Below the pieces are notes generated by a model. That model did not search any database. It had not been told where the DNA came from and saw only the letters and a program-made list of their open reading frames with translations. From the NCBI GenBank assembly GCA_034530875.2, contig JAVRCJ020000062.1, positions 1-29,501 of the forward strand: 29,501 nt of DNA, given 5' to 3'. Each line of letters opens with the position of its first letter. Within the stretch, counting starts at the first letter, position 1. Source of the DNA: Nostoc sp. DedSLP01. GTDB lineage: Bacteria > Cyanobacteriota > Cyanobacteriia > Cyanobacteriales > Nostocaceae. A program made the translations under genes and the position numbers. Shown here piece after piece: positions 3,231-26,467 of this stretch.

Positions 3231-5855
3231 CTACAACCAATTACCAACTATAACGTAGGGTGCCCAGTACATCGGACGCTTATATTCAGGAGCTTCAAGT
3301 AATTTTAATTGAGCAAAGCGTAAAGCTTCTGCTGTAGTTTTACCAGTCACTAACTGGCGGTAAAATTCCTCAATAAATAAAGCTGTAGAGTTATCGCCAA
3401 TTTGCCACAGGGAGGCTAAAGTACTCCGCGCACCAGCACGCAAAGCCACCCCAGCTAATCCCAATGCAGCTCGGTTATCTCCTGCTGCTGTTTCGCAAGC
3501 GCTCAAAACAAGTAATTCAACTGGTTCTGTTAGTTTTTGCTCTCTACTTTTAAGCAAACTATCTAATTCACTCACATTGATGCGTCCATCAGCTGCTAGG
3601 ATAAAAGTGTCTTTTGCTTTAGAGCTAAATTGCCCGTGAGTTGCCAAGTGAACAACTTTAAAAGGTTGAGCGTTGATGGTTTTTCCTAAAGTCGTACTGG
3701 TAAAATTTTTATCCAATAATGTAGTTGTCGATACCCCGGATTCCTGAATTAATTTCAGTTCAACCTTAACGTAGGGAAGCGCTGCAAACTTTTCATTTTT
3801 GGGTGGTTGCGATAGTCCTCCAGCAAGGGCATTTAATTTTTTCTGTCCTAGAGATTTGGGAGTAAATAGTTGCAGTCCGGGGCTAATAACTACAGAATAT
3901 TTTTGGACTAAATACTCTCTGCCATCATACAATGCAGACATCGGGATATTTCGCAGCAACCCATCTGGAATAAAGACTAGAGTATTAACTTTACTATTTT
4001 TAAGGTCTATTTCAACTGGTTTAATTAACCAGTTATAAAGCTGTTGAGAAACTGCTTGAAATTTCTGATTAGCATCAGGTTCGACTATTGTCTCTCGTAT
4101 TTTTGTAATAACTTGCTCTAATTGCTGACGGTTGACTTGAGAAGTTTTATGAATCAACGGTTGCTTGGGAAGTTTGATAATAATTTCTAAATAATTATCT
4201 AGGATAATCGGGTAGAAAATAGCAGTATTCGGGTTGTCGCGGTCTACTACTTTGTCTAGAACCACAAATTGGTTACTTAAGCAAGCTTCTCGAAAAAAAT
4301 TGTCGAGTTCTGCAACTTGCAAAGCTTCTATTCGCTGACGTGCTTTATCTAAATTAGGTTTTCCTTGTCCTTTCTCTTGTAAAATCAACTCTACAGACTG
4401 CCGATAAAGAGGTTCTATACGATCGCGAAAATTGAACTGTACGTCTCGATTAACCGCAACTAAATCGCTGCGAAGAGACTGAAGAGTTGATACAGCAGCA
4501 TCATAAGCAGATATGGCGGCTTCGATATTTCCCTGTGCTTTGAGTAAGCGTCCTAACTGCCACTCAAGGCGATAAGCTATATCTGAGGCATCGATTTTTT
4601 GCGCTAGAAACAACGCTTGCTGAGTCAAATCCTGTGCTTCTTGCAATTGTTGGTTCTGCTCGTAAACTTCTCCCAAGCTGCCCAGTGCATAAGATTCGGC
4701 ACGTTCATCACCGATAATTTTGGCTTGGTGAACGCTAGTTGCCAGAATCTCTGCAATGTCTTTTTTGTTACCAATTGTGGTTAGAGTCTGAGCAAAATTG
4801 ATTCGTGCATAAATACCAGCTTGATTGGTAGGCAGATTAGGAAATTGAGATTGAATTGTGGGTATTAATAACTTTGCTTCAGTGATGCGTTCGTTTTCGA
4901 CTAGCAAACTCAGCTGATTAATCAGAGCTTGAACTTTGGCTAGAGGGTTTGGTGCAATTTTGGCAGCATTTTCATAATGAGCGATCGCATCTTTAATATT
5001 ACTTAACGACCTAGCAGTATTACCGAGGCTAAATTCCGTCAAACTAATTTCTAAAGGCAGTTGCAGACGTTGAGCGATTTCTAAGCTTTGTTGTAAGTTT
5101 TTCTGGGATAACTCTAGTTCGCCTAATTGTTGTAAGACATTGCCAAGCGATCGCAAAGCTGTTACTTTTACAGGTGAGTCAGGTTGGGAACTTAATTGTT
5201 GGGATACTTTATTCAATATATCTAAGCTACGACGGTAAAAACCAGCAACTCGTAGCGCTTGTGCTTGGTTAACACGGCTGCGCGTTACTCCAGCATTGTC
5301 ACCTAATTTCTTCCAGATTTGCTCTGCTTGTTGTGATGTTTTTACAGATGCATCAGTTTGTCCGTCTGCTAATTGCAATTCGCCCTGAATGTTTAGAGTT
5401 TGTGCAAGAATTTCTAACAATTCAGATTTGGGATTGTTGACATTTAACTTTTGATTTATCTCATCCCAACCAAGCAAATTTAAGCTATTGTCAATAGTTG
5501 CATAAGCTTCTTTCCAGGAGCCGAGTTGCTGGTATACAAGACAGAGGTTAGTCAGCGCTGCGGCTTGTGCAAGGTTATTGCTTTCTCGTTGATAAATACG
5601 GACAGCTTGTTGTAGAACATTTACTGCTTCAGTAAAGCGTCCAGCTTGATAAAGTGCTTCTCCTTGCTCAATAAGTTGCTGTGGTGTTGTAGCTGGAGGT
5701 TTATTTGTTTGGATGTGAAACCCGTTTGATGAATTTGTCTGGATTTGTTTAGCAAATGTGCTAGGGATAAGAGTCAGGAAAATAGCAAGGGTAAATAGGA
5801 CTACGGGAGTTACCGCAAATCTAATTACTTGCTTTGGCAGCTGAAGTTTTGCCAT
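3231..5855 (-). CDS. TPR-repeat CHAT-domain (caspase-like) protein with N-terminal signal peptide
   Basis: Hydrophobic N-terminus ending STFA, helical TPR-like repeats, then CHAT motifs LVFIPDG, HLATHG, LVLSACET, ASLW and YWAPYVIVGNWL. RBS GGAGG lies upstream and the start overlaps the upstream gene by 35 bp. Confidence 0.93.
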   Translation of the reverse strand: MAKLQLPKQVIRFAVTPVVLFTLAIFLTLIPSTFAKQIQTNSSNGFHIQTNKPPATTPQQLIEQGEALYQAGRFTEAVNVLQQAVRIYQRESNNLAQAAALTNLCLVYQQLGSWKEAYATIDNSLNLLGWDEINQKLNVNNPKSELLEILAQTLNIQGELQLADGQTDASVKTSQQAEQIWKKLGDNAGVTRSRVNQAQALRVAGFYRRSLDILNKVSQQLSSQPDSPVKVTALRSLGNVLQQLGELELSQKNLQQSLEIAQRLQLPLEISLTEFSLGNTARSLSNIKDAIAHYENAAKIAPNPLAKVQALINQLSLLVENERITEAKLLIPTIQSQFPNLPTNQAGIYARINFAQTLTTIGNKKDIAEILATSVHQAKIIGDERAESYALGSLGEVYEQNQQLQEAQDLTQQALFLAQKIDASDIAYRLEWQLGRLLKAQGNIEAAISAYDAAVSTLQSLRSDLVAVNRDVQFNFRDRIEPLYRQSVELILQEKGQGKPNLDKARQRIEALQVAELDNFFREACLSNQFVVLDKVVDRDNPNTAIFYPIILDNYLEIIIKLPKQPLIHKTSQVNRQQLEQVITKIRETIVEPDANQKFQAVSQQLYNWLIKPVEIDLKNSKVNTLVFIPDGLLRNIPMSALYDGREYLVQKYSVVISPGLQLFTPKSLGQKKLNALAGGLSQPPKNEKFAALPYVKVELKLIQESGVSTTTLLDKNFTSTTLGKTINAQPFKVVHLATHGQFSSKAKDTFILAADGRINVSELDSLLKSREQKLTEPVELLVLSACETAAGDNRAALGLAGVALRAGARSTLASLWQIGDNSTALFIEEFYRQLVTGKTTAEALRFAQLKLLEAPEYKRPMYWAPYVIVGNWL

Positions 5856-8502
5856 ATTTCACACCTCCCTGAGATACAGGACAGTCAGCAGGTGTTTGCC
5901 AAGGGCTGTGGGGGTTGAGTTGAGGAACTTGTGCTACTAGTTCTATGTTTCCCTTGCGATCGATAACCCAGCCAGAAGCTTCCACAATTGGGATTGTAGC
6001 AGCAATAGAAGTAGCTGAAACTTCTGTTGGTTGTGGTACAGGCGTTATGTTTGCCAAGTTTTCTGATTTTGGTCTTAATTTTACCCACACAGATACAGTA
6101 CTTGAATCTTGTAACGGTTCAGTGGGACTCATGGGTAGTCCGCCGCGTCCTGTTGCCACAAATGTATTTTGGAATTGCCGAGTTCCAGGCGTGCAGGCGG
6201 TGGAAATTTGGTTAGAAGCATCAACTAGATTAATTGGGAGTTCGACTAAGCCCTGAGTGGGGTCTAAATCAGGTAGAGTAATTTCTATATTTCCGATTAA
6301 ATCAGGTGTTGCTCCTTTGGCGGTAATATCACTATTTGGAGAAGGTTCTTTTCTAGACTGAATACCAAAGATCCCTGCAATATTTTTGATAATGATATTT
6401 CCACCACGGAAATTAGCAGAATCTGCTCTAATATCGCTATTTTCTAATGGAACAGCGATGATGAAACCATTTTTAGCATCAATGGTAATATTGCCGCCAC
6501 TAATATTGTCTCCACTAGCGTTAGTGGTGATACTACTACCACGACGCAGTAGCAATAGAGGTGAATTAACAATGATATTTCCCCCTCCGCCAGTAGTATT
6601 AGCATTAATTTCGCCGGCGTTATTCAACACGATAGAGTTAGCATTTACAGTTATGTCACCTGCCTTACCTTTGGCATCAAATGTGCTAGCACTAACATTT
6701 GCCCCATCTCGAATTAGTAATTCACGAGTGTTTATCCTCAAGTCTCCTCCATCACCTGTACTGCCTCGGTCGGCGGCAGCAGACAAAAAGCTAATAAAGC
6801 GACCATCACTGGAACGACCAATCACTTGTACACTATCAGCAGTGATAGCCAAATTCCCCCCCTTACCTGCACCAAATGTGGCAGTACTAACATTTGCCCC
6901 ATCTCGAATTAGTAATTCACGAGTGTTTATCCTTAAGTCTCCTCCATCGCCTGTACTTTTCCCAGCTTGAGCAGACAAGATACTGAAGTTACCAATCACT
7001 TGTACACTATCAGCAGTAATAGCTAAATTCCCCCCCTTAGCTGCACCAAATGTGGCAGTACTAACAAATGTCCCATCTCGAATTAGTAATTCACGAGTGT
7101 TAATCGTTAAGTCACCCGCATTGCCTCTACCTACAGATTGAGCAACCAAGTTGCTGAATCTACCATCACTGGAGCGACCAACCACTTGTACGCTATCAGC
7201 AGTAACAGCCAAATTCCCTCCCTTACCTGCACCAAATGTGGCAGTACTAACAAATCCCCCATCTCGAATTAGTAACTCACGAGTGTTAATCGTCAAGTTG
7301 CCTGCATTGCCTATATCTTGAGATTGAGCTCCCAAGCTACTCGATCTACTAGCACTGGAGCGACCAACCACTTGTACGCTATCAGCAGTGACAGCCAAAT
7401 TCCCCCCCTGACCTGCACCAAATGTGGTAGCACTTACCTGTGCTCCATCTCGAATTAGGAATTCACGAGTGTTAATTGTCAAGTTACCTGCATTTCCAGT
7501 TGCATTTGGGTAAACTTGAGCAGACAAGTCACTGTATCGACCACTTGCATTTACCGACTCAGTAGCATTCACTAGCAAATTTCCCCCCTGTTTTGTCCCT
7601 AGAGTACTTGTCTCGATCTGAGAACCATTTGTAAGGGTGACACGTTTGCCTTGCAGTTGAATATCACCACCACCTTCCCCGCTTGCATCCACGGTTGCCT
7701 GTTGGGATAATTGAATATTTCCAAAACTTTGCACGCCACTATAACCCAAAGCAAAACCTTTGCTAGTCGGTGTGAGGCTAACTAAACCATTTCCGGCGAC
7801 AGAGCCTAATTCTATCTTTCCACCAGCAGTTTTCAGTGTTGCCCCTTCTAAATTAATATCTCCACCGACTAAAGCTAAAGTTCGATTGGGTCGCACTCGC
7901 AATGCATCTTGTGTATCAATGATGGGAGAATTAAAATCTCTTACTCCCTGACCATTACCCTGTACCTGAATCAAACCAGGATTCGCTCCAAATTGCAAAC
8001 CAATCGGCACGCTAATAGTTAATAAAGGTGTTGGTTGCGGTTTTTTGGCACTAAATTCCAAACCATCCGCAAATTTCATCACGTCGGCAGATGTGGCAAA
8101 AAAAGAACCGCCAATATCTAATCGAGCATTCTGACCAAATATAATACCGTTAGGATTAATCAAAAACAGATTCGCTGCGTTAGCACGAATTAACCCATCA
8201 ATATTAGAAATAGAATTACCCGTTACCCGACTAATAATATTTTGAATATCTGCGGCATTTTTAAACAAAGCCGTGCTGTTAGTAGGGACAGAAAATTCGG
8301 AAAAGCTGTGGAACAGATTACCCCCTCTGATGGTTCCACCCTCAATAATGGTGGTATTGCCGTCTAATTTCACATTGGAATTATTTGGCAGAGTGCCGTC
8401 TGGGGTGATTTGAGCAACTGAGCTATTTGTATATAAGGTAACTGCATTAATAATGGCAACTCCTAGACCTTGTAACCAGTTTGGCGCAGTTTTAAAAGAC
8501 AT
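5821..8502 (-). CDS. Filamentous haemagglutinin N-terminal-domain exoprotein (TpsA-like) #1
   Basis: Signal peptide (SVA|QITPD), TPS motifs NLFHSFSEF, SRVTG and LINPNG, five ~60-aa beta-helix repeats (INTRELLIRDG), and a C-terminal TGRGGLP...IVEASGW domain. Confidence 0.93.
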   Translation of the reverse strand: MSFKTAPNWLQGLGVAIINAVTLYTNSSVAQITPDGTLPNNSNVKLDGNTTIIEGGTIRGGNLFHSFSEFSVPTNSTALFKNAADIQNIISRVTGNSISNIDGLIRANAANLFLINPNGIIFGQNARLDIGGSFFATSADVMKFADGLEFSAKKPQPTPLLTISVPIGLQFGANPGLIQVQGNGQGVRDFNSPIIDTQDALRVRPNRTLALVGGDINLEGATLKTAGGKIELGSVAGNGLVSLTPTSKGFALGYSGVQSFGNIQLSQQATVDASGEGGGDIQLQGKRVTLTNGSQIETSTLGTKQGGNLLVNATESVNASGRYSDLSAQVYPNATGNAGNLTINTREFLIRDGAQVSATTFGAGQGGNLAVTADSVQVVGRSSASRSSSLGAQSQDIGNAGNLTINTRELLIRDGGFVSTATFGAGKGGNLAVTADSVQVVGRSSDGRFSNLVAQSVGRGNAGDLTINTRELLIRDGTFVSTATFGAAKGGNLAITADSVQVIGNFSILSAQAGKSTGDGGDLRINTRELLIRDGANVSTATFGAGKGGNLAITADSVQVIGRSSDGRFISFLSAAADRGSTGDGGDLRINTRELLIRDGANVSASTFDAKGKAGDITVNANSIVLNNAGEINANTTGGGGNIIVNSPLLLLRRGSSITTNASGDNISGGNITIDAKNGFIIAVPLENSDIRADSANFRGGNIIIKNIAGIFGIQSRKEPSPNSDITAKGATPDLIGNIEITLPDLDPTQGLVELPINLVDASNQISTACTPGTRQFQNTFVATGRGGLPMSPTEPLQDSSTVSVWVKLRPKSENLANITPVPQPTEVSATSIAATIPIVEASGWVIDRKGNIELVAQVPQLNPHSPWQTPADCPVSQGGVKYGKTSAAKASN

Positions 8503-8735: not shown

Positions 8736-8908
8736 CCTGTAAGTGTCAGGACAATGAACTTATGCACAACAGACGATATTAGCAAATTGGCACTGCTAAA
8801 TCAAGTGAATAAACCAGAGCAAGGGTTTGAGCGTTTGATAATTGAGGCAATTTTTTCCTCAATATCCTTATGCAACAAGGGTTTCACAAATTACGTGCGT
8901 TTGCCTTC

Positions 8909-9170
8909 GTGAATAAACTTATCTCACTGCTACTAATTAACAATCAGAAGGCAAAGCTAAAAAATCTCTGATTCGGGGTCGTGAATAAAATTATCTCACT
9001 GCTACCAATTAACAATCAGAAGGCAAAGCTAAAAAACTTCTGATTCGGGGTCGTGAATAAACCAATCTCACTGCTACCAATTAACAATCAGAAGGCAAAG
9101 CTAAAAAACTTCTGATTCGGGGTCGTGAATAAACTTATCTCACTGCTACCAATTAAGAATTAGAAGGCAA
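8909..9170 (+). repeat. Tandem 72-bp repeat array A (~3.6 copies), putative promoter plus hairpin units
   Basis: Units start at 8909, 8981, 9053 and 9125: GTGAATAAACTTATCTCACTGCTACCAATTAACAATCAGAAGGCAAAGCTAAAAAACTTCTGATTCGGGGTC. AATCAGAAG/CTTCTGATT forms a 9-bp stem. Confidence 0.92.
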
Positions 9171-9228
9171 AACCAAACTAGCGATCGCCTTCAGTTCAAG
9201 TTCAAACTTGAAATTTCGGAGATGTCTA

Positions 9229-9591
9229 ATGTCTAACATCAACAACTACGGAGTAGATATGAACGAGAAAACTTTAACAGAATTGAACTTCAGCGCAGTG
9301 AAGGAACTTAACGATGAGGTTGCTGCTACTTGTAGTGGAGGTAATGCACAGTTATTCCGGGGTGCTAACTTTCAGGGAGGTGGTATAACGTTTACTGGCA
9401 GCGATCGCAACCTAGCTAATAACAATTTCAACGACGCCACCTCATCTATTGTTATTACAGGAAATCAAAGATGGAGGTTTTATAAAAATACAAACTTTAG
9501 AGGTCCATCTATAACTTTAGGACCAGGACGATACCGTAGAGTTGCTGGAGGAGTAAACGATTCAATTAGTTCTCTCAAACGCTTATCATAG
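9229..9591 (+). CDS. Double-glycine-leader protein with single beta/gamma-crystallin domain #1
   Basis: Leader ends ELNDEVAATCSGG. The 82-aa mature part has two Greek-key motifs (LFRGANFQG...FNDATSSIVI and WRFYKNTNFRG...NDSISSLK). GGAG precedes the ATG at 9229 and the N-terminus matches the paralogues. Confidence 0.88.
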   Translation: MSNINNYGVDMNEKTLTELNFSAVKELNDEVAATCSGGNAQLFRGANFQGGGITFTGSDRNLANNNFNDATSSIVITGNQRWRFYKNTNFRGPSITLGPGRYRRVAGGVNDSISSLKRLS

Positions 9592-9885: not shown

Positions 9886-10071
9886 GTGAATAAACTTATC
9901 TCACTGCTACCAATTAATAATCAGAAGGTAAAGCTAAAAACCTCTGATTCTCAGCCGTGAATAAACTTATCTCACTGCTACCAATTAACAATTAGAAGGC
10001 AAAGCTAAAAAACCTCTGATTCCCAGCCGTGAATAAACCAATCTCACTGCTACCAATTAACAATTAGAAGG
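9886..10071 (+). repeat. Tandem 71-72-bp repeat array B (~2.6 copies)
   Basis: Units at 9886, 9957 and 10029 share the array A consensus, with linker TC(C/T)CAGCC. Confidence 0.92.
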
Positions 10072-10127: not shown

Positions 10128-10487
10128 ATGTCTAACATCAAAAACTACGGAGTAGATATGAACAACAAGCAAATCAAAGACCTCTACAGCATCGAAGCTG
10201 TGCAAGACCTTGACCATGAAGCCGCTGCCACTATTAGTGGTGGTGCCTTAGACTTTTCCGACAAGAAGGATGGTGAAGGAAGGCGGCTAAATAATATCGC
10301 AAACGCACGACGCAGTTTAGGTAGCTTTAACAATAAAGCATCTTGGTACGAGGTGACGGGTAGAAAAGATTGGATTGTCTACAGTGGTGAGAATTTCACA
10401 GGTCAGAAGAGACGTCTCAAAGCAGGTTCAAAAGGTAACTTCACTGGTCCTTTTAACAACAACATCGCGTCTGTCAAACCTGCATAA
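10128..10487 (+). CDS. Double-glycine-leader protein with divergent beta/gamma-crystallin-like domain #2
   Basis: Leader ends DLDHEAAATISGG. Mature FNNKASWY...WIVYSGENFTG...FNNNIASVK aligns with the Greek-key pattern of #1. Confidence 0.82.
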   Translation: MSNIKNYGVDMNNKQIKDLYSIEAVQDLDHEAAATISGGALDFSDKKDGEGRRLNNIANARRSLGSFNNKASWYEVTGRKDWIVYSGENFTGQKRRLKAGSKGNFTGPFNNNIASVKPA

Positions 10488-10629: not shown

Positions 10630-10676
10630 CATTCATATCAAGATAGCACAAATAAACATCAACACTGTTAACAGTT

Positions 10677-10752
10677 ATCAGAAGGCAAAGCTAAAAAACC
10701 TCTGATTCCCAGCTGAGAATAAACTTATCTCATTGCTACTAATTAACAATCA
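10677..10752 (+). repeat. Repeat array C (about one unit: hairpin half followed by promoter-like half)
   Basis: ATCAGAAGGCAAAGCTAAAAAACCTCTGATTCCCAGCTGAGAATAAACTTATCTCATTGCTACTAATTAACAATC. Confidence 0.88.
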
Positions 10753-10813
10753 CAAAGAAGAAAACAAGCTTATCTTCAGTTCAAACCCCAATCTAAAACT
10801 CAGGGGAAAAACA

Positions 10814-11170
10814 ATGTCTAACATCAATAACCACGGAGTCGATATGAACAACAAGCAAATCAAAGACATCTACAGCATCGATGTGCAAGACCTTGACTAT
10901 GAAGCCGCTGCCACTATTAGTGGTGGTGCCTTAAAGTTTTTCGACAAGAAGAATGGTATAGGAAGGAGGGTATTTTTTACCTTAAAAGTAGCAGCACGCA
11001 GTTTAGGCAACTTTAACAATAAAGCATCTTTTTACGTGTTGGGGGGTAGAGATGTGATTGTCTACACGGGTGAGAATTTCACAGGTCAATCAAGGCGTCT
11101 GAGAGCAGGTTCAAAAGGTAACTTTAATGGTCTTTTTAATAACAACATCGAGTCTTTTAAACCTGTTTGA
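10814..11170 (+). CDS. Double-glycine-leader protein with beta/gamma-crystallin-like domain #3 (close paralogue of #2)
   Basis: ATG at 10814 has the same 5' context as #2 (CTCAGGGGAAAAACAATG). Leader ends AATISGG; mature FNNKASFY...VYTGENFTG...NNNIESFK. Confidence 0.82.
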   Translation: MSNINNHGVDMNNKQIKDIYSIDVQDLDYEAAATISGGALKFFDKKNGIGRRVFFTLKVAARSLGNFNNKASFYVLGGRDVIVYTGENFTGQSRRLRAGSKGNFNGLFNNNIESFKPV

Positions 11171-11292: not shown

Positions 11293-11393
11293 AGAAATAG
11301 CACAAATAAACGTCAACGGTGTTAACAGTTATCAGGTAGGAAACGGACTCCTCTACCCCTTGTTAACTGCGGCTGTTACTGATTTTTTAAACA

Positions 11394-13592
11394 ATGAAAT
11401 ACCACAGCATATTGCAACACAGTGAAGAAGATTGTGGTGCAGCAAGCCTAGCCACAGTTTGCAAACACTACGGACGCACCTTTGCCCTCAATCGCGTGCG
11501 AGAAGCGGTAGGCACGGGAACGAGAGGAACTACACTACTAGGTTTAAGGCGGGGAGCAGAAACCCTGGGATTCCATGCTCGTCAAGTTCAAGCTACCCCA
11601 GAACTGTTTGAGAAATTAAATGAAGTCCCAATGCCCGCGATCGTTCACTGGAAAGGCTACCACTGGGTAGTATTATACGGGAAAAAGGGTAACAAATATG
11701 TCATCTCTGACCCTGCCTTCGGCATCTTATACCTCACCTCCCAGGAGTTAATCGCGGGTTGGAGTGATGGTGTGATGCTGCTGCTGATACCAGACGATAG
11801 CCGCTTCTACGAGCAAGGGGAAGATAAAATTGGCGGTTTTGGGCGCTTTATTGCCCGCGTTATGCCCTATCGCAATCTTTTGGTTCAGGCGATCGCTATT
11901 AACTTTGCGATCGGGCTGTTGTCCCTGGCTTCCCCTTTAATGATGCAACTCCTCACCGATGATGTGCTAGTGCGGGGAGATACCCAACTGCTAACAACGG
12001 TGGCAATTGGTGTGATTGCCATGAACCTAATTCAAAGTGCCATTGGTTTGGTACAATCTCACCTGATCGGTCATTTTGGTCAAAGGTTGCAATACGGGCT
12101 AATTCTAGAATACGGCCGAAAACTGTTGCGCTTACCCCTATCATATTTTGAAGCACGTCGCAGTGGAGAAGTCGTTAGCCGGATTGCTGACGTTCATACC
12201 ATCAATAATCTAGTCTCTCAAATTGTCCTTGGTTTACCCAGTCAATTTTTTGTGGCTCTGGTTTCCTTGGGTTTCATGCTCTTCTATAGTTGGCAACTGA
12301 CTCTCGCTTCCGTTGCTGCTTTTGTTATTGTCACAGGAGTCAACCTGCTTTTTCTTCCCGCCTTGCGCCAAAAAACCCGCAGCCTCATCGTTAAAGGTAC
12401 GGAAAATCAAGGCTTTTTAGTCGAAACCTTTCGCGGCGTTCAAGTCCTGAAAACCACCCAAGCGACTCCGCAAGCTTGGCAAGAATATCAAACAAATTTT
12501 GGTCGCCTTGCTAACTTAGACTGGACGACGATGAAGTTGGAGCTTTACAGCGGCACAGCCACTAGTATTCTTTCCAAATTGACGAGTATTGGCATACTCT
12601 GGTTAGGTTCTAGCTTAGTAATTAATCAGACATTATCTATCGGTCAACTGCTGGCGTACAGCGGTATGAGTGGTAGTTTTCTTGACTTTTTAGAGTCAGC
12701 AGTCGGGCTAATTGATGAATTTATCACTGCTCAAATTGTCGTTCAACGCTTGACAGAAGTGATAGATTCTACCCCAGAAGATGAAAATGACTTTAAAAAA
12801 CCTTGGGCAGAAATTCCTGGCAATGCAGATATTATTTGTTCTCAAATTAACTTCCACCATCCTGGTAGAACTGACCTGTTAGAAAATTTTTCTTTAACTA
12901 TCCCTGGTGGGAAAGTAATAGCCTTAATCGGTCAATCTGGCTGTGGCAAAAGTTCCCTTGGGAAATTAATTACTGGTTTATATCGCGTTCAATCTGGTAA
13001 CATTCGTTATGGTTTATACAACCAGCAAGATTTATCTTTAGAATGTTTGCGACAGCAAGTTGTATTAGTTCCCCAAGAACCTCATTTTTGGAGTCGTTCG
13101 ATTGTGGAAAATTTTCACTTCAGTTATCCCAACATTAGTTTTGAGGAAATAGTCAAAGCCTGTCAAATTGCTGGTGCAGATGAATTTATTAGTAAATTAC
13201 CTGATAAATATCAAACTGTTTTAGGCGAATTTGGTGCAAATATTTCTGGCGGACAAAGGCAGAGATTAGCTATAGCTAGAGCAATTGTAATTGACCCACC
13301 TGTATTAATTTTAGATGAATCTACAGGCGCTCTTGACCCGCTAAGTGAAACCCAAATTTTAGATAGATTACTTAATCACCGTCAAGACAAAACTACAATT
13401 ACGATCAGCCACCGTCCTCAAGTTATCAAACGGGCTGATTGGATTGTGTTGCTTGAAGATGGGTGCTTAAAAATTCAAGGAACTCCAGAAGAATTACGTC
13501 ATATCCCTGGAGAGCATTTAAGCTTTCTTGATGAAATTTATCCTTCTAATAATGGTAATGGCTTGAAATCTTCTTTACTTTTTCGGAATTAG
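11394..13592 (+). CDS. Peptidase C39-containing ABC transporter (PCAT, bacteriocin-type exporter)
   Basis: QHSEEDCGAA (catalytic Cys), HWKGYHWVV (His), a transmembrane domain, Walker A GQSGCGKS, signature ISGGQRQR and Walker B LILDES. Confidence 0.96.
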   Translation: MKYHSILQHSEEDCGAASLATVCKHYGRTFALNRVREAVGTGTRGTTLLGLRRGAETLGFHARQVQATPELFEKLNEVPMPAIVHWKGYHWVVLYGKKGNKYVISDPAFGILYLTSQELIAGWSDGVMLLLIPDDSRFYEQGEDKIGGFGRFIARVMPYRNLLVQAIAINFAIGLLSLASPLMMQLLTDDVLVRGDTQLLTTVAIGVIAMNLIQSAIGLVQSHLIGHFGQRLQYGLILEYGRKLLRLPLSYFEARRSGEVVSRIADVHTINNLVSQIVLGLPSQFFVALVSLGFMLFYSWQLTLASVAAFVIVTGVNLLFLPALRQKTRSLIVKGTENQGFLVETFRGVQVLKTTQATPQAWQEYQTNFGRLANLDWTTMKLELYSGTATSILSKLTSIGILWLGSSLVINQTLSIGQLLAYSGMSGSFLDFLESAVGLIDEFITAQIVVQRLTEVIDSTPEDENDFKKPWAEIPGNADIICSQINFHHPGRTDLLENFSLTIPGGKVIALIGQSGCGKSSLGKLITGLYRVQSGNIRYGLYNQQDLSLECLRQQVVLVPQEPHFWSRSIVENFHFSYPNISFEEIVKACQIAGADEFISKLPDKYQTVLGEFGANISGGQRQRLAIARAIVIDPPVLILDESTGALDPLSETQILDRLLNHRQDKTTITISHRPQVIKRADWIVLLEDGCLKIQGTPEELRHIPGEHLSFLDEIYPSNNGNGLKSSLLFRN

Positions 13593-13728: not shown

Positions 13729-15234
13729 ATGATTAGTAAGTCTCAAACAAATTTTTTACCCTTAGTTCAAGACAACGAGTTTCTTCCACCAATTAATCGT
13801 TGGACTACGTTTGGCGGACTATTTATCGTGTTTGCCTTGGCGTTATCTGTTCCTGTGGCTGCGGTTGCTAAATATAAAGTTACGGTGATTGGGCAAGCGG
13901 TTGTCCGTCCTGCGGGTGAATTGCCAATTGTACAGGCGGCGATAGAAGGACAAGTAATGCATATTTACGTCAAAGAAAATCAAACGCTGCAAAAAGGAGA
14001 TACGATCGCTACTATTGATGATTCTCGATTGCAAACCAAAAAAAACCAGCTGCAAACTAATATTCAACAAGCTAGGTTACAACTAATTCAAACCGTTCCC
14101 CAAATTAATGCGATCGATAGTCAAATTCGAGCCGAAAGCGATCGCACTAATCGGACTATCGCCTCTGCTAAAGCTGAATTGCAAGGACGCGATCGCGATT
14201 ATCAAGACAAAAAAATTACCACTATCACTGAACTTCAAGAAGCATCAGCCAACGTCAAAATGGCCCAAGAAGAATTATATGCAGGGCAAGCACAGTTACA
14301 ATCAGCATTAGCTAATCTCCACGCAACTGAGGCGGCTTTAGGAGCAGCAACATCAAAGCAGAGCCGATATGAAAGTGTTGCTAAACAAGGGGCATTATCC
14401 CGCGACCAACTAGAAGAAGTACAGCTGGCTGCCAAACAGCAACAACAAGCTGTAGAGGCGCAAAAAGCCACTTATAAAGCCCAAGAAAAAACAAATGAAC
14501 GGCTAAAACAAGCTGTTTTAGGGGCTATTGCTAAACGCTCGCGCACTCAAGCAGCTCTCAACCCAAGCAATGCAGAGGTAGCAATAGCGACTGAACGCAT
14601 TGCTCAAGAAAAAGCCGCTGGGGAAGTAAATAAAGCATCGTTAGAAAGAGAACTTCAAGCACTTATAAAACAGAAAATTGAAACCGAAAAACAATTAGAG
14701 CGCGATACTAGCGAATTCAAGCAAGCTGAAATTGACCTGAAGCAAACTACTATTACCGCTACAGCCGACGGGATTATTTCCAAACTAAATTTGAGAAACC
14801 CCGGTCAAACTCTCCGGGCTGGGGAGGAAGTTGTGCAAATTGTTCCTAGTCATGCACCTTTAGTTATCAAAGCAGCTGTCGGTTCTGAAGAAAAAGGTAA
14901 GATAAAAGTCGGTCAAAAGGTGCAAATGCGAGTTAGTGCTTGTCCTTATCCTGATTACGGTACTCTCAATGGCTTTGTCAAAGCGATTTCCCCGGATGCT
15001 GTTAATTCACCAAAAAAGGATGCAGATACGGATACGAACTCTACCCCAAAAGCAACTGCTGTAGGCGCTTTTTACGAAGTCACAATTGAACCAGAGAAAC
15101 TTGCTTTAGGTCGTAGCAGCACAAAGAAATGTCAAATTCAATTGGGTATGGATGGCAGAGTTGATATTATTACCCACGAAGAAACTGTACTGCAATTTGT
15201 ACTCCGCAAAGCCAAATTAATGACGGATTTTTAA
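13729..15234 (+). CDS. HlyD-family periplasmic adaptor (membrane fusion protein)
   Basis: One TM segment, lipoyl-like VKENQTLQKGD, a long coiled coil, ITATADGII, and ACPYPDYGTLNG. The ATG at 13729 is chosen because the upstream extension is repeat-derived. Confidence 0.94.
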   Translation: MISKSQTNFLPLVQDNEFLPPINRWTTFGGLFIVFALALSVPVAAVAKYKVTVIGQAVVRPAGELPIVQAAIEGQVMHIYVKENQTLQKGDTIATIDDSRLQTKKNQLQTNIQQARLQLIQTVPQINAIDSQIRAESDRTNRTIASAKAELQGRDRDYQDKKITTITELQEASANVKMAQEELYAGQAQLQSALANLHATEAALGAATSKQSRYESVAKQGALSRDQLEEVQLAAKQQQQAVEAQKATYKAQEKTNERLKQAVLGAIAKRSRTQAALNPSNAEVAIATERIAQEKAAGEVNKASLERELQALIKQKIETEKQLERDTSEFKQAEIDLKQTTITATADGIISKLNLRNPGQTLRAGEEVVQIVPSHAPLVIKAAVGSEEKGKIKVGQKVQMRVSACPYPDYGTLNGFVKAISPDAVNSPKKDADTDTNSTPKATAVGAFYEVTIEPEKLALGRSSTKKCQIQLGMDGRVDIITHEETVLQFVLRKAKLMTDF

Positions 15235-15239
15235 GATTC

Positions 15240-17645
15240 CTAACGATGTTGAATCAACATTACAACAACACCGCTTGCAACCACGGCAAAGGCAGAAGGA
15301 ATAAATGGCAACCATAGCCCTTGTTTTAAAAGGATGATGCTCCCAAAAGGAGCTGCCCAAAGAGCGATCGCACAAACTCCATATAAAATGATAGCGATCG
15401 CAAATATAGCGCATCCCTTATTAAGTAGTGAATGACGCACGCACCAAACAATCAAACCAGATACGCTCGACCATGCCCATATCCAAATAATATCAACCCA
15501 GAAAGGCAAAACCCCAAGAATTGGACGTTTGTCTAAAACTGCACTCAAAATTTGACTGACCATTTGCGCTTGTATAAATATGCCTGGTATTTCCTGGTAA
15601 GGTTGTTGTGCCGCTGAGTAGGGAGTTGACCAAGTATCGCTGATAGTGTTAGCTGTCACTCCTATGAGAACAACCTTATTTTTGAAAAAAGTATAGTTAA
15701 CCTTATTACTCAATACATCTGCTAAAGAAACTCTTTGGTAATCTGCATGACGGTAGTTGACAAGTATTTGAATTCCACCTAAATCAACTCTTTGTTGATA
15801 GCCACCACTGCGACCAGGCTTTAAGCGTTTAAATACTTTAGAACCAAATTGTATATAATCTTCATTTAAATTAGGTTGAATATTTTCGTAAAATAAATAA
15901 CGACCAGCTAATTGTAACGAGAGTGAGTAAGGCGTTGTACAAACAGACGAAGGCTCTTGTGCCATCATCATAATTTGGCGACGGACGATACCATCTGAGT
16001 CTTGAATTGCATCAGTAAAACCCTGACGTTCTATAGGGACTTCAAGAGGTGGTTTAACACCTTGGGGGTCGTGTTTGCGATCTCTGCCTTTACAGACAAC
16101 TACCACATTTTCTTTGCTCAGTTCAGTGGGGAGTTGTATCGGCTTTGATTCATTTGGAGGGTCAGTAAAATCTCTATAAATATCCAGTCCAATGACTCGC
16201 GGTTGATACTTTTGTAATTTGTTGAGTAATTGAGCTAACGTACTATCCGAAATAGATTTCACTCCTTTTGTCGTCTCTTGTCGGGATTGAATATCTTTTT
16301 CAGTAACTTCAACAACGAGCAATCTTGGATCTAAATCTTCCTTTGTCCGCAGGAGTAGCATTTGGTCAAAAGTTTGCAGCTCAGCTTTTTCAAAAATCCC
16401 CAAGTATCTCAGACCTATCGTTGAAAGAGTCACAATAGCAGTACTCAGCAGTACAGTCCAAAGTTTGTGCTTTCGAGTCGCAATTGTGCTTTTGGTCTTG
16501 GCGATTGAAATTCTGCTCTGAGTCGAAACCTCTCTGCGAGTCTTGGTGTCACCCGAACCACTGCGTAGTTCTTGCCAAGTAGTAGGAACAGTTGTAGGAT
16601 TTTGGCAGATAACTGGCAACCAACTAGCACAAGGAAAATCATTCTCCAATCCTTGAAGTCTTTCCCGCGCTTCTCGCACCGCCAGATAAAATGGCTTATT
16701 AAGAGCAAAAGCGACAAGAAAGTTTTTCAAAAACTCCTGTGCGACTAAATCTGACACCCCTTCCCGCATCACAATCATCTGGGGAATGTTCAAATCAGCC
16801 AAATTTCGTGCCAAACCAATGCCATCACAGGAGTTAAAAATTGCCAGTTTTAAACCGTGTGTAATTGCTGTTTTAAGTGCATTTTTAAATTGGTAAATTG
16901 TTAAACTTTCGCTTTGATTAATGTAAATTTCCCCTATCTCTCCATCTGCAATACTACCGCTATGTCCGGCAAAAAATAGAATATCCCAATTCTGATTCCA
17001 CAGTTGCTCGTCAAGTTCTTTTCGTGTAGGTTCGACAAGAAACGTAGTTTGAGTATCTGTTAAACTTTGCAACCAAGAACGGTCTTTATCAATATCAATA
17101 CCAAAACTGTTACCGAGAATTGCTAAAATCTTGACTTGAAGTGTAGTAGATTTTTGTACAACTTGAGGAGATGCATACTCATGATTGCTCAAAGCTAATT
17201 CTGCTTTCGGGTAATCTTCAAAAAAATTCCACAGATGCCAAGGTAACCGATGCAATAAAGATATATTTGTTTCAAAAATAACTCTAATTTCATCATCTCG
17301 GCTGAGTAGAGTTCTTAACTGTCGTTCAATATGTTGGAAGGATTCAGATTTTAACCAAGCATTGATATGTGTTTGTAACTGATGACATACTTCATCGAAA
17401 TCATTCACAGAAATATTGGTAATATCTTGTGAATGCACTTTTATCCGTTGATTGCTGCCCAGACGCTGATGGATAGCTTCGTAGAGTAATCTCCATCTTC
17501 TATAGAGTTCGGAAAGTTCTGGTATTGCTGGTAGACTCCCTATTATTTTAAATAATTGGTTATTGTGCCAAAGTTGAGCCGTGACAACAGGAAATCCTTG
17601 ATTTAAGTCTCCTCCTAACAAGCTGAAGATGACTAGCTGACTCAT
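15240..17645 (-). CDS. Membrane receptor: N-terminal CHAT domain, TM, CHASE2 sensor, 3 TM
   Basis: LPWHLW, FFAGHS and IFNSCDG (His/Cys dyad); TM LWTVLLSTAIVTLSTIGL; CHASE2 motifs DPRLLVVEV, PRVIGLDIYRD, DSDGIVRR, KVVLIG and PGIFIQAQMVSQIL; hydrophobic C-terminus. Confidence 0.9.
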   Translation of the reverse strand: MSQLVIFSLLGGDLNQGFPVVTAQLWHNNQLFKIIGSLPAIPELSELYRRWRLLYEAIHQRLGSNQRIKVHSQDITNISVNDFDEVCHQLQTHINAWLKSESFQHIERQLRTLLSRDDEIRVIFETNISLLHRLPWHLWNFFEDYPKAELALSNHEYASPQVVQKSTTLQVKILAILGNSFGIDIDKDRSWLQSLTDTQTTFLVEPTRKELDEQLWNQNWDILFFAGHSGSIADGEIGEIYINQSESLTIYQFKNALKTAITHGLKLAIFNSCDGIGLARNLADLNIPQMIVMREGVSDLVAQEFLKNFLVAFALNKPFYLAVREARERLQGLENDFPCASWLPVICQNPTTVPTTWQELRSGSGDTKTRREVSTQSRISIAKTKSTIATRKHKLWTVLLSTAIVTLSTIGLRYLGIFEKAELQTFDQMLLLRTKEDLDPRLLVVEVTEKDIQSRQETTKGVKSISDSTLAQLLNKLQKYQPRVIGLDIYRDFTDPPNESKPIQLPTELSKENVVVVCKGRDRKHDPQGVKPPLEVPIERQGFTDAIQDSDGIVRRQIMMMAQEPSSVCTTPYSLSLQLAGRYLFYENIQPNLNEDYIQFGSKVFKRLKPGRSGGYQQRVDLGGIQILVNYRHADYQRVSLADVLSNKVNYTFFKNKVVLIGVTANTISDTWSTPYSAAQQPYQEIPGIFIQAQMVSQILSAVLDKRPILGVLPFWVDIIWIWAWSSVSGLIVWCVRHSLLNKGCAIFAIAIILYGVCAIALWAAPFGSIILLKQGLWLPFIPSAFAVVASGVVVMLIQHR

Positions 17646-17663
17646 TTGTTTTTTGTCTTTATT

Positions 17664-17700
17664 TAATGACCAATGACTAATGACTAATGACTAGTGACTA
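17664..17700. repeat. Short tandem heptamer repeat (STRR2-like), 5 copies
   Basis: TAATGAC CAATGAC TAATGAC TAATGAC TAGTGAC. Confidence 0.85.
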
Positions 17701-18879
17701 AATAACAAAATTTTCTGTTATCTGATAACTATCAAAAGTAATTTGGATGCTAAAACATTCTCCTATTTCTCCATCAAAGCGTTTCAATTGGATGTAGTTA
17801 TCTTGTTCTCTTGCTTGTACTTCCTGAATAATTTCCTCTGACTCTAAAACCAAAGCTAACTTGATATTAACAGGTAGATATTCTCCATTGGCAGGATGTA
17901 GTTGCACGCGAATACTAACTTGTTGGCTATCCTCTGGTATGAAGGCAACTAATAGCACCACTTTTTGAGACTCTATTTCTATTCCCAAATCAATCAGCTT
18001 GGCTCGTTTGATACTACCAAAACCTGACCCGGAGCTACTCCTGAAATTAAAAGCTAGACTGTTGGAATTGAGGGGCAAAAATGTTTCTACTGCTTCCCAA
18101 GCATTATCGTATATACCTTCTAGCCAACGACTTAGATTCACTCGCACTTGTAATGATTGTGGTTGCTGCCGTTGTTGGTACAAGCGTTGCCGCCACTGCT
18201 CATTCTCTAGTAACGATCCCCAAGTGCTAAATGGTACTGCCAATCTAGAGAAACGAAAAGAAGCATTGCCTAACTGTTGCACCAGATTTTCTGCTTGCTC
18301 GGTAGATAGTTGTGGTAATGGAGCTACAGCCGCTTTCATCTCTTCTGTTCTGCAAAATTGGTAGCTTAAAGAGAAAGCATTGAGGTCTTTTGTCAAATGC
18401 TGTGCATCTATACAATAAGTCTTATCCACTGAGTCATAGTGAGCCAGAGATTTTAGTTCTTTATGGGTTGTGTAACCCCAAATTCGTATCCACTCGCCAT
18501 CCGGTTTGACTTGCACCGCTAAATAGTAGTCTGCTGCCCAACTAGGAATATCTACCCATTCTTGAGGGACTTCTAACTCGCGATCGTCAATTGCTTCACT
18601 GGGAATCAACGCGACTCGCCTTCCCTCTAACAAAATTACTGTGCCATTGACAAATTCCCAAAAAGCTGGAGTACCAGGAAAACTGTACCAAACACTCGCT
18701 TTTGAAAAATCTTCAGTTGAGATCCAATCCAAGAAAGCATGGAGACAAATTTGATTTATGTAAGCGCACCAGCGACTACTAGGCGTGGCATAAACCTGGC
18801 TTTGCTGCCAGGATTGCGCCTGAATTGTTGATGATATTTCTAATAACCATTCTCTGGGATCTGCAAACGCGCAAGTCAT
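17698..18879 (-). CDS. DUF1822 family protein
   Basis: Motifs WEFVNGT, LIPSEAID, VPQEWVDIPSWAADYYLAVQV, IWGY, VNLSRWL and RAKLIDLG, ending ITENFVI. Confidence 0.85.
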   Translation of the reverse strand: MTCAFADPREWLLEISSTIQAQSWQQSQVYATPSSRWCAYINQICLHAFLDWISTEDFSKASVWYSFPGTPAFWEFVNGTVILLEGRRVALIPSEAIDDRELEVPQEWVDIPSWAADYYLAVQVKPDGEWIRIWGYTTHKELKSLAHYDSVDKTYCIDAQHLTKDLNAFSLSYQFCRTEEMKAAVAPLPQLSTEQAENLVQQLGNASFRFSRLAVPFSTWGSLLENEQWRQRLYQQRQQPQSLQVRVNLSRWLEGIYDNAWEAVETFLPLNSNSLAFNFRSSSGSGFGSIKRAKLIDLGIEIESQKVVLLVAFIPEDSQQVSIRVQLHPANGEYLPVNIKLALVLESEEIIQEVQAREQDNYIQLKRFDGEIGECFSIQITFDSYQITENFVI

Positions 18880-18906
18880 TTTTACTACCTTGTGAAAATT
18901 AAGGTT

Positions 18907-20094
18907 TTAGTTTATACCACCATACTGGTTTCTCAACCATTCTTCCAAAGCAAGACTCATATCTTTAATTTGGTTGGAATTAACAGAAATATTCAAATCT
19001 TGGCTCCACTTAAGGAGTGCTGCAAGTATAGATTCTCTACCTTTAACTAGTCTGCGAGACACTGTAGGCTGACTCATCTGCAACTGTTGCATAATCTGCT
19101 GCTGAGTGAGTCCTTGTTCGTAATAAAGCTTAAGTACTTCTTGGGATTGTACATCTAGGCTCTGTAAGGCTTTTAACAATACACCAGACATCTGAGATAT
19201 TTGGTTTTGTCGATTTTGGACATCCTCTTCGGCTATCATATTAGCCATTGGTTCCTCAGAGGATGGGTCTGGCAAATCAAACGTTACTGTCGTGCTATCA
19301 TTTTGCTCGAAAGCATTTAGAGATTTCACAGGTGGAAATAAATAAGCTCGCACGTAGAGAGCTGTCTGGGTTAACCACTGTTCAATTGTCTGGGTGTTGC
19401 GTGCGAGAGTAGGTTGAGTGATTTGGCTTTGGCGTTGGTGGTTGTATAGGTTGGCAATGGCTTCCCAAAGTTGACGATTCGGTTCTGGTAACTGAGAGTT
19501 ACCTCCTGGTTGGTTTTGGATGTACAGTTCCTTGAAACAAGTCCAAGCTAAACAATATTCAGCAATTGCACTTTGTGATAATCCAGCTTCACTAAGAGCT
19601 TCACTAAGCAGCTTTTTGCTCACTTTGCGTAACAATGCCCAATTGGTGCAAATATCAGCTTCCCTACGTTGACGTAAAATATCTTTCAGCCGACTGGACA
19701 TTGCCATGATGGCATAAGCTTTTAAGCTAGAAGATTTTTCTGGGTTGAAGTCTTTAAGAATTGTTTCAACTTCTGCGATCGCCATTTGGAAGTAGTCAGC
19801 GAGCATGTACTGGCTGAAATTAAATTTAGCAACTGTTTTTGAAGCAACCCAATAACATGGTTCTTGTAAATAAGCTAACAAATGCATTCTAGCAAGGTTA
19901 TCAAACCCAGAGCGCCATTGCTTGTACCAGTAAAGCGCCCAAAAGTTCTCTGATTTAAGTGCTGATGACGATCGCTCCAAGTGGTTTTGGATATTTCTAT
20001 ACAGTTTGCGATCGGTCAACCATTTGCTGAATCTGCCTCTTTCCAACTCCACGAATGTTGAAAACATATCCGTAATTTCTTGGCGAGGACGCAT
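18907..20094 (-). CDS. Sigma-70 family RNA polymerase sigma factor (cyanobacterial DUF1822-associated type)
   Basis: Region-2-like LADYFQMAI...FNPEKSSSLKAYA and region-4 HTH LKLYYEQGLTQQQIMQQLQMSQPTVSRRL. ATG at 20094 (MRPRQ). Confidence 0.88.
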   Translation of the reverse strand: MRPRQEITDMFSTFVELERGRFSKWLTDRKLYRNIQNHLERSSSALKSENFWALYWYKQWRSGFDNLARMHLLAYLQEPCYWVASKTVAKFNFSQYMLADYFQMAIAEVETILKDFNPEKSSSLKAYAIMAMSSRLKDILRQRREADICTNWALLRKVSKKLLSEALSEAGLSQSAIAEYCLAWTCFKELYIQNQPGGNSQLPEPNRQLWEAIANLYNHQRQSQITQPTLARNTQTIEQWLTQTALYVRAYLFPPVKSLNAFEQNDSTTVTFDLPDPSSEEPMANMIAEEDVQNRQNQISQMSGVLLKALQSLDVQSQEVLKLYYEQGLTQQQIMQQLQMSQPTVSRRLVKGRESILAALLKWSQDLNISVNSNQIKDMSLALEEWLRNQYGGIN

Positions 20095-22461: not shown

Positions 22462-22510
22462 TGTTTATGCATGAGATATGTGAATTCGCTCTAAAAGAGT
22501 ATGATTTTTA

Positions 22511-22631
22511 ACGTTGCTCCCATTAAGTGATAATTCTTTTGGAGTAGAGCAGAAAGCCTGCCGCAGAAATACAACAAGCAAGATGCTCATTCCAGAAAGC
22601 CAACAAAATTATCCTGCAAAGGGAGCAACGT
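22511..22631. mobile_element. MITE-like inverted-repeat element
   Basis: Perfect 11-bp inverted ends ACGTTGCTCCC / GGGAGCAACGT, with an inner GATAATT/AATTATC pair. Confidence 0.6.
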
Positions 22632-22745
22632 CTGATTTTTTAAGTACTATTACTTCATCAAAATAATACAATAGTTTTGCTGGCGATTGAATGACTTGTG
22701 CAGAAAACTGTAAGTGCTATTTTTGCTATATGTGCAATATTTTCT

Positions 22746-25493: not shown

Positions 25494-25709
25494 AAATAAA
25501 TTACCTGAGATAAAATCCAATTCACGATATCTCAACAGCTACACCTGAATCTGAAAATGGCTCTCACTCAAACAAATGTTTATTAACTGTACTTATGCTA
25601 CACCAGCTTTGCTCCAAATAATACAGTTAAAGTTTTTTGCCGCATAAGTAAATGAGAAAAAAACTCAGTTGAATACGAGATATTTAAGAAATACGAACGA
25701 GCTAGCAAG

Positions 25710-26303
25710 CTATTCATTGCTAAGAACTTGGATTATGTCACCTCGCCCAATCCTACGTAAATAATTGATGAAAAGATACATTATTGTTGGTTGATTACGT
25801 GTTGGACGCAAGGCATATTCTTCTATAGTGGCAAACAGTAATCTATCTTGCAGGTGTCTATCATTAGTAAATTCAGCGATGCAAGCCATTTGCTGTTGCA
25901 GATAGATATCATTTTGCAGTAATTCCTGAATCACTTCTTGTAATATATCTATCAAACAGTGTTGGCGATCGCGACTGGAAGCTATCCAAGTTGGAATGTG
26001 GCTGCGGTAAATAACTAAACTTCCCAATCGTATGATTAAGTTGCGATAAGCTCCTTCTCTAGAGCTTCTTAAGTAGCGTTGGCGTAAAATTTTCCAGCGA
26101 TGCTCCATTGCTTGCTCGATCGTCTCCAGTTCTAATGGTTCAACTTGTTCAAACTGTCTTAAGTCCGTTTTCAAAAGCCAACAAACAATACTCTCTCTGG
26201 TAGTTGCACTTTGCTCTGGGCATTCCTGTACTAGACGTTTGTGCCAATACTGCTTTAGTGTTACAGCATTTTCTGCGATAAGAAGATTGTATTTATTAAA
26301 CAT
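25710..26303 (-). CDS. HetZ-related protein, N-terminal portion only (short or truncated)
   Basis: YWHKRLVQECPEQS, ESIVCWLL, RQRYL, AYRNLIIRLGSLV, SRDRQ and EEYALRP recall the cyanobacterial HetZ-related family; no C-terminal HTH is present. Confidence 0.7.
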   Translation of the reverse strand: MFNKYNLLIAENAVTLKQYWHKRLVQECPEQSATTRESIVCWLLKTDLRQFEQVEPLELETIEQAMEHRWKILRQRYLRSSREGAYRNLIIRLGSLVIYRSHIPTWIASSRDRQHCLIDILQEVIQELLQNDIYLQQQMACIAEFTNDRHLQDRLLFATIEEYALRPTRNQPTIMYLFINYLRRIGRGDIIQVLSNE

Positions 26304-26467
26304 TTTGCATCATGGCTCCTTTGCTGCCTTTAGCGTTATTTGCTTGTGTTTAGTGGTTGCACAACTTTTCGGGTTACATACAAGGTATATAGGAATCAAA
26401 CTCTAATGGTTACTGACTTATGACTGACTTGAGCGCGTAAAATTGAAATAGTTGCCAGCAATTAGCT

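Follow-up and report, generated by a model that had tools for sequence, protein, structure and literature searches.

Does the membrane receptor encoded beside an alternative sigma factor in Nostoc sp. DedSLP01 release that factor by cutting the protein encoded between the two, and what would the sigma factor then transcribe? The question is raised by three genes, for a sigma factor, a DUF1822 protein and a CHAT-CHASE2 receptor, in a stretch of 29,501 nucleotides (the window) which makes up the entire contig JAVRCJ020000062.1 (C62) of an 8.57-Mb genome. The original prediction, made from the letters alone, saw in them a caspase-like protease, an anti-sigma factor and a sigma factor acting as a cascade on 72-bp repeat units and a nearby exporter. 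The triad is the EACC2-caspase/sigma/DUF1822 system and as such was already predicted in 2021, since Kaur et al. (PMC8195603) describe the same gene set. To this predicted kind the locus adds a named, predicted cut site, Arg280 of the DUF1822 protein, and a candidate promoter, the 72-bp unit.

All three genes are on the minus strand, with the boundaries originally predicted, and are separated by 27 nt (sigma-DUF1822) and 52 nt (DUF1822-receptor), while the stop codons of the receptor gene and the convergent hlyD gene are 5 nt apart. This bears out the tight, co-directional arrangement converging on HlyD noted in the original prediction. The arrangement was compared in an orthologous set of 80 loci (56-93% identity) and in a family-wide set of 80 loci, hand-picked from the 150 listed matches of a search of the phylum and including a few orthologues. 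The sigma gene is directly upstream of the DUF1822 gene in 79 of the 80 orthologous loci and adjacent to it in 71 of the 80 family-wide loci. A full-length receptor, always with both catalytic motifs, is present in 72 orthologous loci, and an intact receptor in 45 family-wide loci, with a CHASE2 domain in 30 of these 45. The triad is hence a conserved and common module, and its three members almost certainly work together as one functional unit. The closest named homologues of the DUF1822 protein are from Nostoc and related genera. The present genome has seven DUF1822 loci (eight matches), filamentous cyanobacteria have up to eight matches per genome, and a phylum-wide sample of 251 genomes gave DUF1822 matches in 173, of which 91 belong to one small-genome family with weak matches.

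The receptor was predicted to begin with a CHAT domain with an intact His-Cys dyad. Both were recovered, the domain as PF12770 at residues 191-342 (37 bits, cut-off 24) and the dyad as the motifs FAGHS (His228) and FNSCD (Cys273). CHASE2 occupies residues 405-730 (214 bits), and hydropathy peaks at 394-412, 715-733, 744-762 and 780-798 fit the anticipated single transmembrane helix before and three helices after it, although the first two of these are modest, at about 1.5, and another peak of this kind, at 686-704, is ambiguous. The profiles of the receptor and of HetF align over 219 columns (probability 99%, E 7e-18) with their dyads in register, and the CHAT domain is, by this comparison, a clear homologue of HetF. 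The receptor itself is not HetF, since it scores 19.7 bits against the HetF family NF045509 (cut-off 1200), with homology confined to the CHAT region, since the N-terminal regions do not align (no significant match between them; 17 columns, P 0.13), and since the genome has a hetF gene of its own. The N-terminal region, which stands where EACC2 would be expected, is conserved from end to end in five paralogues and most of the family-wide receptors, and a sequence search of the PDB with residues 1-365 gave nothing significant. A family scan found neither a TPR nor a zinc anti-sigma family in the receptor, in which the CHAT domain stands before the first transmembrane helix. Five more full-length receptors are encoded in the genome, all with both catalytic motifs.

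The sigma factor matches TIGR02937 with 104 bits (cut-off 42.9) and Sigma70_r4 above the cut-off. Region 2 lies at about residues 80-145 and region 4 at about 300-355, with an insertion of about 150 residues between them and extensions at both ends. A profile of close homologues had the region-4 helix-turn-helix (HTH) as its sole significant match in the PDB, while a diverse profile of 79 sequences matched SigF (1l0o) in regions 2 and 4 (E 1.6e-12), and also FliA, WhiG and RpoS, the best solved matches being SigF, FliA and WhiG. Since regions 2 and 4 both match SigF, the product is, as judged from these profiles, a sigma-70 factor with a long insertion. Two size classes of sigma factor, of about 210-270 and about 385-600 residues, precede DUF1822 genes among loci L152-L231, which also contain a clade of sigma-DUF1822 pairs lacking a neighbouring receptor; in this clade the cut may therefore be made in trans.

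The AlphaFold2 (AF2) model of the DUF1822 protein (pLDDT 88.9, 142 sequences) comprises an alpha/beta, nuclease-like N-terminal domain (1-180), helices (190-278), a disordered stretch (281-285) and an eight-stranded beta-sandwich (290-392). A TPR or TRADD-N assignment was rejected, as helical repeats are missing from the model and the matches listed include neither fold, an absence which does not by itself exclude a fold. Distant relatives were seen in a family of genomes of about 2 Mb within the same phylum (f29, L262-L295), in which 58 of 61 genomes have one protein matching a query of DUF1822-like N-terminal domain plus helical segment. The open frames are mostly 500-1300 residues long, and the two inspected have a long acidic stretch. 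The helical segment of these proteins resembles, by eye, a class I anti-sigma domain; an assignment as such was discarded, the match to RsiW being not significant (E 0.32) and the segment not aligning with the DUF1822 helices.

An indication of what the DUF1822 protein may do comes from PatU. In Anabaena PCC 7120 the CHAT domain of HetF cuts PatU3 after Arg117 (Xing et al. 2022, PMC9457339), and PatU3, a potential anti-sigma factor, binds and inhibits the insertion-bearing sigma factor HetZ (Hu et al. 2026, PMC13342950). The DedSLP01 genome has both hetF and hetZ-patU, away from the triad, its PatU gene being located behind hetZ. In an unforced profile alignment residues 216-386 of the DUF1822 protein pair with residues 115-315 of this PatU, and Arg280 falls on PatU Arg186, a register that recurs with trimmed alignments and with different, overlapping ones. 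Arg186 can be equated with the HetF site, because 141 residues follow it as they follow Arg117 in the 258-residue PatU3, and because the published PatU3 peptide starting at Ser118 maps directly behind it. Of 142 aligned homologues 136 keep Arg280, which borders a loop that otherwise varies, and Arg186 is kept in 48 of 51. Across the 80 family-wide sequences the Arg280 column has Arg 56 times and Lys 4 times, with a gap in 13 sequences and some other residue in 7. The AF2 model of PatU (pLDDT 69) loses order from Arg186 and has eight main C-terminal strands, so that both models are disordered straight after the arginine and both end in a beta-sandwich of eight main strands. When the ESM Atlas was queried with DUF1822 residues 190-393 and clusters of DUF1822 itself were set aside, the top two matches were PatU clusters (0.81), and with PatU as query the top three named clusters were DUF1822 (0.83-0.84).

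Several observations weigh against this kinship and against the parallel built on it. Both ESM Atlas scores are below the 0.9 bar of that resource and are at the level of a lead, and the profile match between the two families is weak (P 0.005-0.033). One of 40 block-shuffled controls beat the real alignment, albeit over 36 columns compared to 161, and a structure search of the ESM Atlas with PatU had no DUF1822 among the matches listed. The beta-sandwich is a generic immunoglobulin-like fold (Z at most 8), and PatU differs by an additional helix (206-224) and by the absence of the nuclease-like N-terminal domain. An arginine is found near the site, within a loose window of eight residues, in 33 of 35 DUF1822 proteins without a neighbouring receptor, and because it persists there no signal of co-variation is left. 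The sigma factor, finally, could not be made a homologue of HetZ: the profile matches are short, inconsistent and HTH-like (probability 9% or less), and no HetZ family is among the best 25 of its 37 NCBIfam matches. An apparent co-variation of Arg280 with the receptor (36/45 versus 13/35) was itself rejected as an alignment shift, the arginine lying a few residues off in other clades. With these points taken into account, we regard it as likely that the C-terminal halves of DUF1822 and PatU are homologous and likely, too, that the DUF1822 protein inhibits the sigma factor, and a cut at Arg280 by the CHAT domain of this receptor is rather probable.

As to the output, the 72-bp units named in the original prediction are real. 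The unit is bipartite: a variable spacer separates a first block of 9 nt from a second of about 23 nt. It usually stops about 50 nt short of the start codon. Strong matches to a 50-nt profile of the unit were found in this genome only on C62 (8), on a second contig, C60 (3), where they surround a lone crystallin gene and a broken gene for a peptidase-C39 ABC exporter (PCAT), and on a third, C40 (1). At a threshold of at least 20 bits the profile has 118 matches in 39 of the 80 orthologous loci; the 80 family-wide loci yield one match, in an orthologue, and 60 hetZ/hetF loci yield none. The exact pattern is present in 15 of the family's 151 genomes, all within the 33 with an orthologous sigma gene, while none of the 118 without one has it; the Fisher test on this distribution (P 6e-12) is descriptive only, since related genomes are not independent. 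Of 38 crystallin genes 28 have the unit upstream, and it also precedes unrelated genes, for a mannan-binding lectin, AfsA, an SH3 protein, Nif11 and an MFS transporter. On this co-occurrence we lean, by a narrow balance, towards the units being the target promoter of the sigma factor.

An unlikely alternative is that the cascade is correct but that the same mobile island carries the crystallin/PCAT cassette and its 72-bp units as passengers, under the control of another regulator. The real targets of the sigma factor would then lie elsewhere, for example in the arm of TPS (filamentous haemagglutinin-like), TPR-CHAT and DUF928 genes. Co-inheritance on one island could explain the distribution, since a copy of the unit lies within 2-28 kb of the sigma gene, and is thus physically linked to it, in 14 of the 15 genomes, and on C40 the unit is 5 kb from a broken remnant of the orthologous sigma gene. 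In the family-wide set PCAT is near only six of the 80 loci (within about 8 kb), compared to 26 for DUF928 and 20 for TPR-CHAT, and the motif is missing from another crystallin-PCAT cassette, on contig C85, whose PCAT is 78% identical. The candidate promoter is further weakened by the 18 of 33 sigma-positive genomes that lack the exact pattern and by the genes that the unit does not precede: it stands before PCAT in only 3 of 27 cases and before sigma (0/77) and TPS genes (0/47) in none, nor was it found upstream of TPR-CHAT genes (0/16), while one of 16 DUF928 genes has it. Autoregulation through the unit was rejected, as none of the 77 sigma upstream regions carries it. Against this alternative speak the conservation of the motif before the unrelated cargo genes named above, its bipartite pattern with a variable spacer, and its absence from all 118 genomes without an orthologue.

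The proposal that the sigma factor drives both the units and the exporter can be retained only in part. The unit tracks the sigma clade, but the link to PCAT is confined to this clade and the unit directly before PCAT is degenerate. Likewise, the co-occurrence of triad and exporter that was to be checked is found in 29 of the 80 orthologous loci (PCAT within 10 kb) but in only six of the 80 family-wide ones, so that PCAT is a clade-specific cargo and not a feature of the family. The degenerate unit before the PCAT gene (about 11295-11340, plus strand) escapes the profile and is the sole unit directly before it, and a second degenerate variant (10640-10692, plus strand; 10 bits) precedes crystallin gene 3. 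The sigma remnant on C40 (41139-41429) is 69% identical over 97 residues, and it and the lone 72-bp-type unit (46285-46327) are near another PCAT locus. In three loci with unrelated cargo (L244:962-1429, L076:15376-15633 and L029:14783-15040) the first residues are the same as or similar to those of the crystallin leaders, which suggests that the promoter travels as a single cassette with the leader region and the start codon. The cargo of a further locus, L054, was taken for LysM, a guess that was not confirmed.

Taken together, these elements would form a one-step transmembrane proteolytic switch working like HetF-PatU-sigmaHetZ. At rest the DUF1822 protein would bind and block the co-translated sigma factor. 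A signal from outside, acting on CHASE2, would align the His228/Cys273 dyad of the cytoplasmic CHAT domain, which, going by the PatU alignment, would cut the DUF1822 protein after Arg280, at the start of the disordered loop between the helical part and the beta-sandwich. The freed sigma factor would then transcribe from the 72-bp units before small exported crystallin-like proteins and other cargo. As a single chain, from the CHASE2 signal through CHAT and the cut after Arg280 to sigma release and transcription from the tandem units, this is put forward tentatively. The cascade of the original prediction is nevertheless plausible and better founded than an analogy, because the CHAT domain is homologous to HetF, HetZ is a sigma factor (PMC13342950), the C-terminal half of the DUF1822 protein resembles PatU and shares a conserved arginine, and the unit tracks the sigma clade; its weaker sides are that the likeness to PatU is at the level of a lead and that the triad itself is not new.

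Another order of events follows from Kaur et al. (PMC8195603), a purely computational study, in which an EACC2-caspase with CHASE2 and transmembrane helices stands beside a sigma factor of the extracytoplasmic-function (ECF) type and DUF1822, and sensing is proposed to activate an autopeptidase in a pathway that ends at the sigma factor. In this case the receptor would cut itself, much as is proposed for DdvA, a CHAT-bearing anti-sigma factor of Myxococcus xanthus (PMC11506125), and the released EACC2-caspase would act on the sigma factor via an uncleaved DUF1822 adaptor. The long linker between CHAT and the first transmembrane helix (about residues 350-393) would suit such a cut. It would, however, leave the conservation of Arg280 beside a variable loop unexplained, and HetF, the closest protease to have been characterised, makes its cut in a separate substrate; we consider self-cleavage improbable. 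Equally improbable is an activating cut at Arg280, with the beta-sandwich docking on the protease and the N-terminal fragment serving as a co-activator with the sigma factor or a DNA binder: the best fold matches of the N-terminal domain are DNA-binding PD-(D/E)xK nucleases (I-Ssp6803I, Z 6.9, root-mean-square deviation 3.3, 120 aligned residues; DpnI, Z 6.8), the second motif block is long for a -10 element, and varied N-terminal domains (HTH, EAD4, TRADD-N) stand on the constant C-terminal part of the DUF1822-family proteins encoded upstream of EACC2-caspase genes (PMC8195603, supplement), but all nuclease matches (Z 6.2-6.9) are below Z 8 and the apparent homologue PatU is an inhibitor (PMC13342950). 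Features of the window are collected in Table 1.

Table 1. Coordinates of the triad, the candidate promoter units and neighbouring genes in the window
Feature	Position	Strand	Basis or remark
Sigma-70 family factor, 395 aa	18907..20094	-	ATG at 20094; TIGR02937 104 bits
DUF1822 protein, 393 aa, candidate PatU-like anti-sigma factor	17698..18879	-	PF08852 345 bits
Arg280 codon of DUF1822, predicted P1 residue (LAFNFR/S)	18040..18042	-	Conservation and PatU alignment
Receptor, 801 aa: N-terminal region in EACC2 position, CHAT, transmembrane helix, CHASE2, three transmembrane helices	15240..17645	-	PF12770, CHASE2, hydropathy
Tandem 72-bp units, 3.7 copies, before crystallin gene 1; candidate target promoter	8907..9171	+	Repeat and profile match
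Tandem 72-bp units, 2.6 copies, before crystallin gene 2	9886..10071	+	Repeat and profile match
Single 72-bp-type unit before crystallin gene 3	10715..10772	+	45 bits
Beta/gamma-crystallin protein (gene 1), 120 aa, double-glycine-type leader	9229..9591	+	PF00030 47 bits; leader ends GG
Crystallin-like protein 2, 119 aa, GG-type leader	10128..10487	+	No Pfam match; 36% identity to gene 1, 72% to gene 3
Crystallin-like protein 3, GG-type leader	10814..11170	+	PF00030 E 3e-4, below cut-off
Peptidase-C39 ABC exporter (PCAT)	11394..13592	+	PF03412, PF00664, PF00005
HlyD adaptor, convergent with receptor	13729..15234	+	PF13437; ATG at 13729
TPS (filamentous haemagglutinin-like) exoprotein	5821..8502	-	PF05860; near 43/80 orthologous loci
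TPR-CHAT protein, N-terminal hydrophobic segment, intact His/Cys motifs	3231..5855	-	Near 26/80 orthologous and 20/80 family-wide loci

The PCAT cassette in the window is flanked by the receptor on one side and the TPS/TPR-CHAT pair on the other. When at least 9 kb of downstream sequence is available, 60 of 62 orthologous loci have either a PCAT/HlyD arm or a TPS/TPR-CHAT/DUF928 arm. Of these, the secreted TPS arm may serve the input side of the system. Beyond the sigma gene (20737-29501, minus strand) the window encodes a ShlB/FhaC transporter and two further TPS-type proteins with 189/195-bp repeats; the 3' ends of the two TPS-type genes are 97% identical over 300 nt (22695-22994 and 26846-27145), and the second runs off the contig. 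Between these two genes lies a 5' fragment (25710-26303, minus strand; 197 aa) of a gene for HetZ-related protein 2 (NF037965, positions 2-179 of 367), with a related copy, 58% identical, on contig C9. At the other end of the window are a split IS5-type transposase gene (1034-1856, minus strand) and, at the start of the contig (263-907, minus strand), two fragments resembling a ParM-type actin ATPase.

If the DUF1822 protein is a PatU-like anti-sigma factor cut at Arg280, the family gains a function, the 72-bp promoter offers a direct reporter with which ligands of CHASE2 could be sought, and an evolutionary origin can be given to the newly solved heterocyst switch; the predictions concern single residues and are cheap to test. 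A broader and rather doubtful generalisation would be that the DUF1822 proteins of cyanobacteria, as a large family, are PatU-like anti-sigma factors, each cut at a single conserved arginine by its own receptor-fused caspase-like protease, that HetF-PatU-sigmaHetZ is one derived member of this widespread, many-copy class of one-step transmembrane switches from protease to sigma factor, and that the output in the present clade is a portable tandem promoter cassette which has captured secreted crystallin-like proteins, a lectin and other cargo.

Among the known systems, type III-E CRISPR couples a CHAT protease, there of the TPR-CHAT kind, to a sigma factor, Csx29 cutting the sigma-sequestering Csx30 when triggered by RNA through Cas7-11. 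No Cas family was found in Pfam/NCBIfam-type family scans of 19 window proteins, which places the triad outside type III-E; craspases targeting putative anti-sigma factors are mentioned elsewhere (PMC11506125). In DdvA/DdvS, as is proposed here, a CHAT membrane protein controls an alternative sigma factor, but DdvA has a periplasmic TPR-CHAT part and, in the same chain, a cytoplasmic zinc anti-sigma domain, whereas the CHAT domain here is N-terminal and cytoplasmic and the candidate anti-sigma factor a separate protein (PMC11506125). The cyanobacterial double-glycine PCAT export clusters (PMC3140520, PMC4997328) share the C39-ABC exporter, HlyD and small GG-leader proteins with the cassette described here, in which, however, the cargo is beta/gamma-crystallin-like and has before it tandem 72-bp units that go with a single sigma clade.

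In the system of Kaur et al. (PMC8195603) an N-terminal domain and a caspase are fused to CHASE2 and transmembrane helices beside sigma and DUF1822 genes; of these components the CHAT His-Cys dyad, the C-terminal CHASE2/transmembrane sensor and the neighbouring sigma and DUF1822 genes are all found at this locus. The interpretations differ, as these authors propose activation of an autopeptidase and not cleavage of DUF1822 as an anti-sigma factor, and call DUF1822 a TPR protein, whereas the AF2 model of this member is devoid of TPR repeats; the parts of that paper covered give no cut site, promoter or cargo. A literature search, outside which most subscription papers lie, found no paper treating PatU together with DUF1822 and no bench study of the triad, and DUF1822 is unmentioned in the main text of Hu et al. 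(PMC13342950) and in those of its supplements that were searched. The closest parallel is HetF-PatU3-sigmaHetZ (PMC9457339, PMC13342950), which shares a membrane-bound, cytoplasmic CHAT protease, a sigma factor with a large insertion co-transcribed with its inhibitor (here a putative one), and an arginine at the matching position of that inhibitor. The two differ in the sensor (CHASE2 here, TPR in HetF), in the protease gene, which here is inside the operon, in the nuclease-like domain that DUF1822 has in addition to the part shared with PatU, and in the sigma factor, which is outside the HetZ family and whose candidate motif differs from the sigmaHetZ promoter (TCCGGA-N16-17-TGNA). The triad thus probably works like HetF-PatU-sigmaHetZ without belonging to it.

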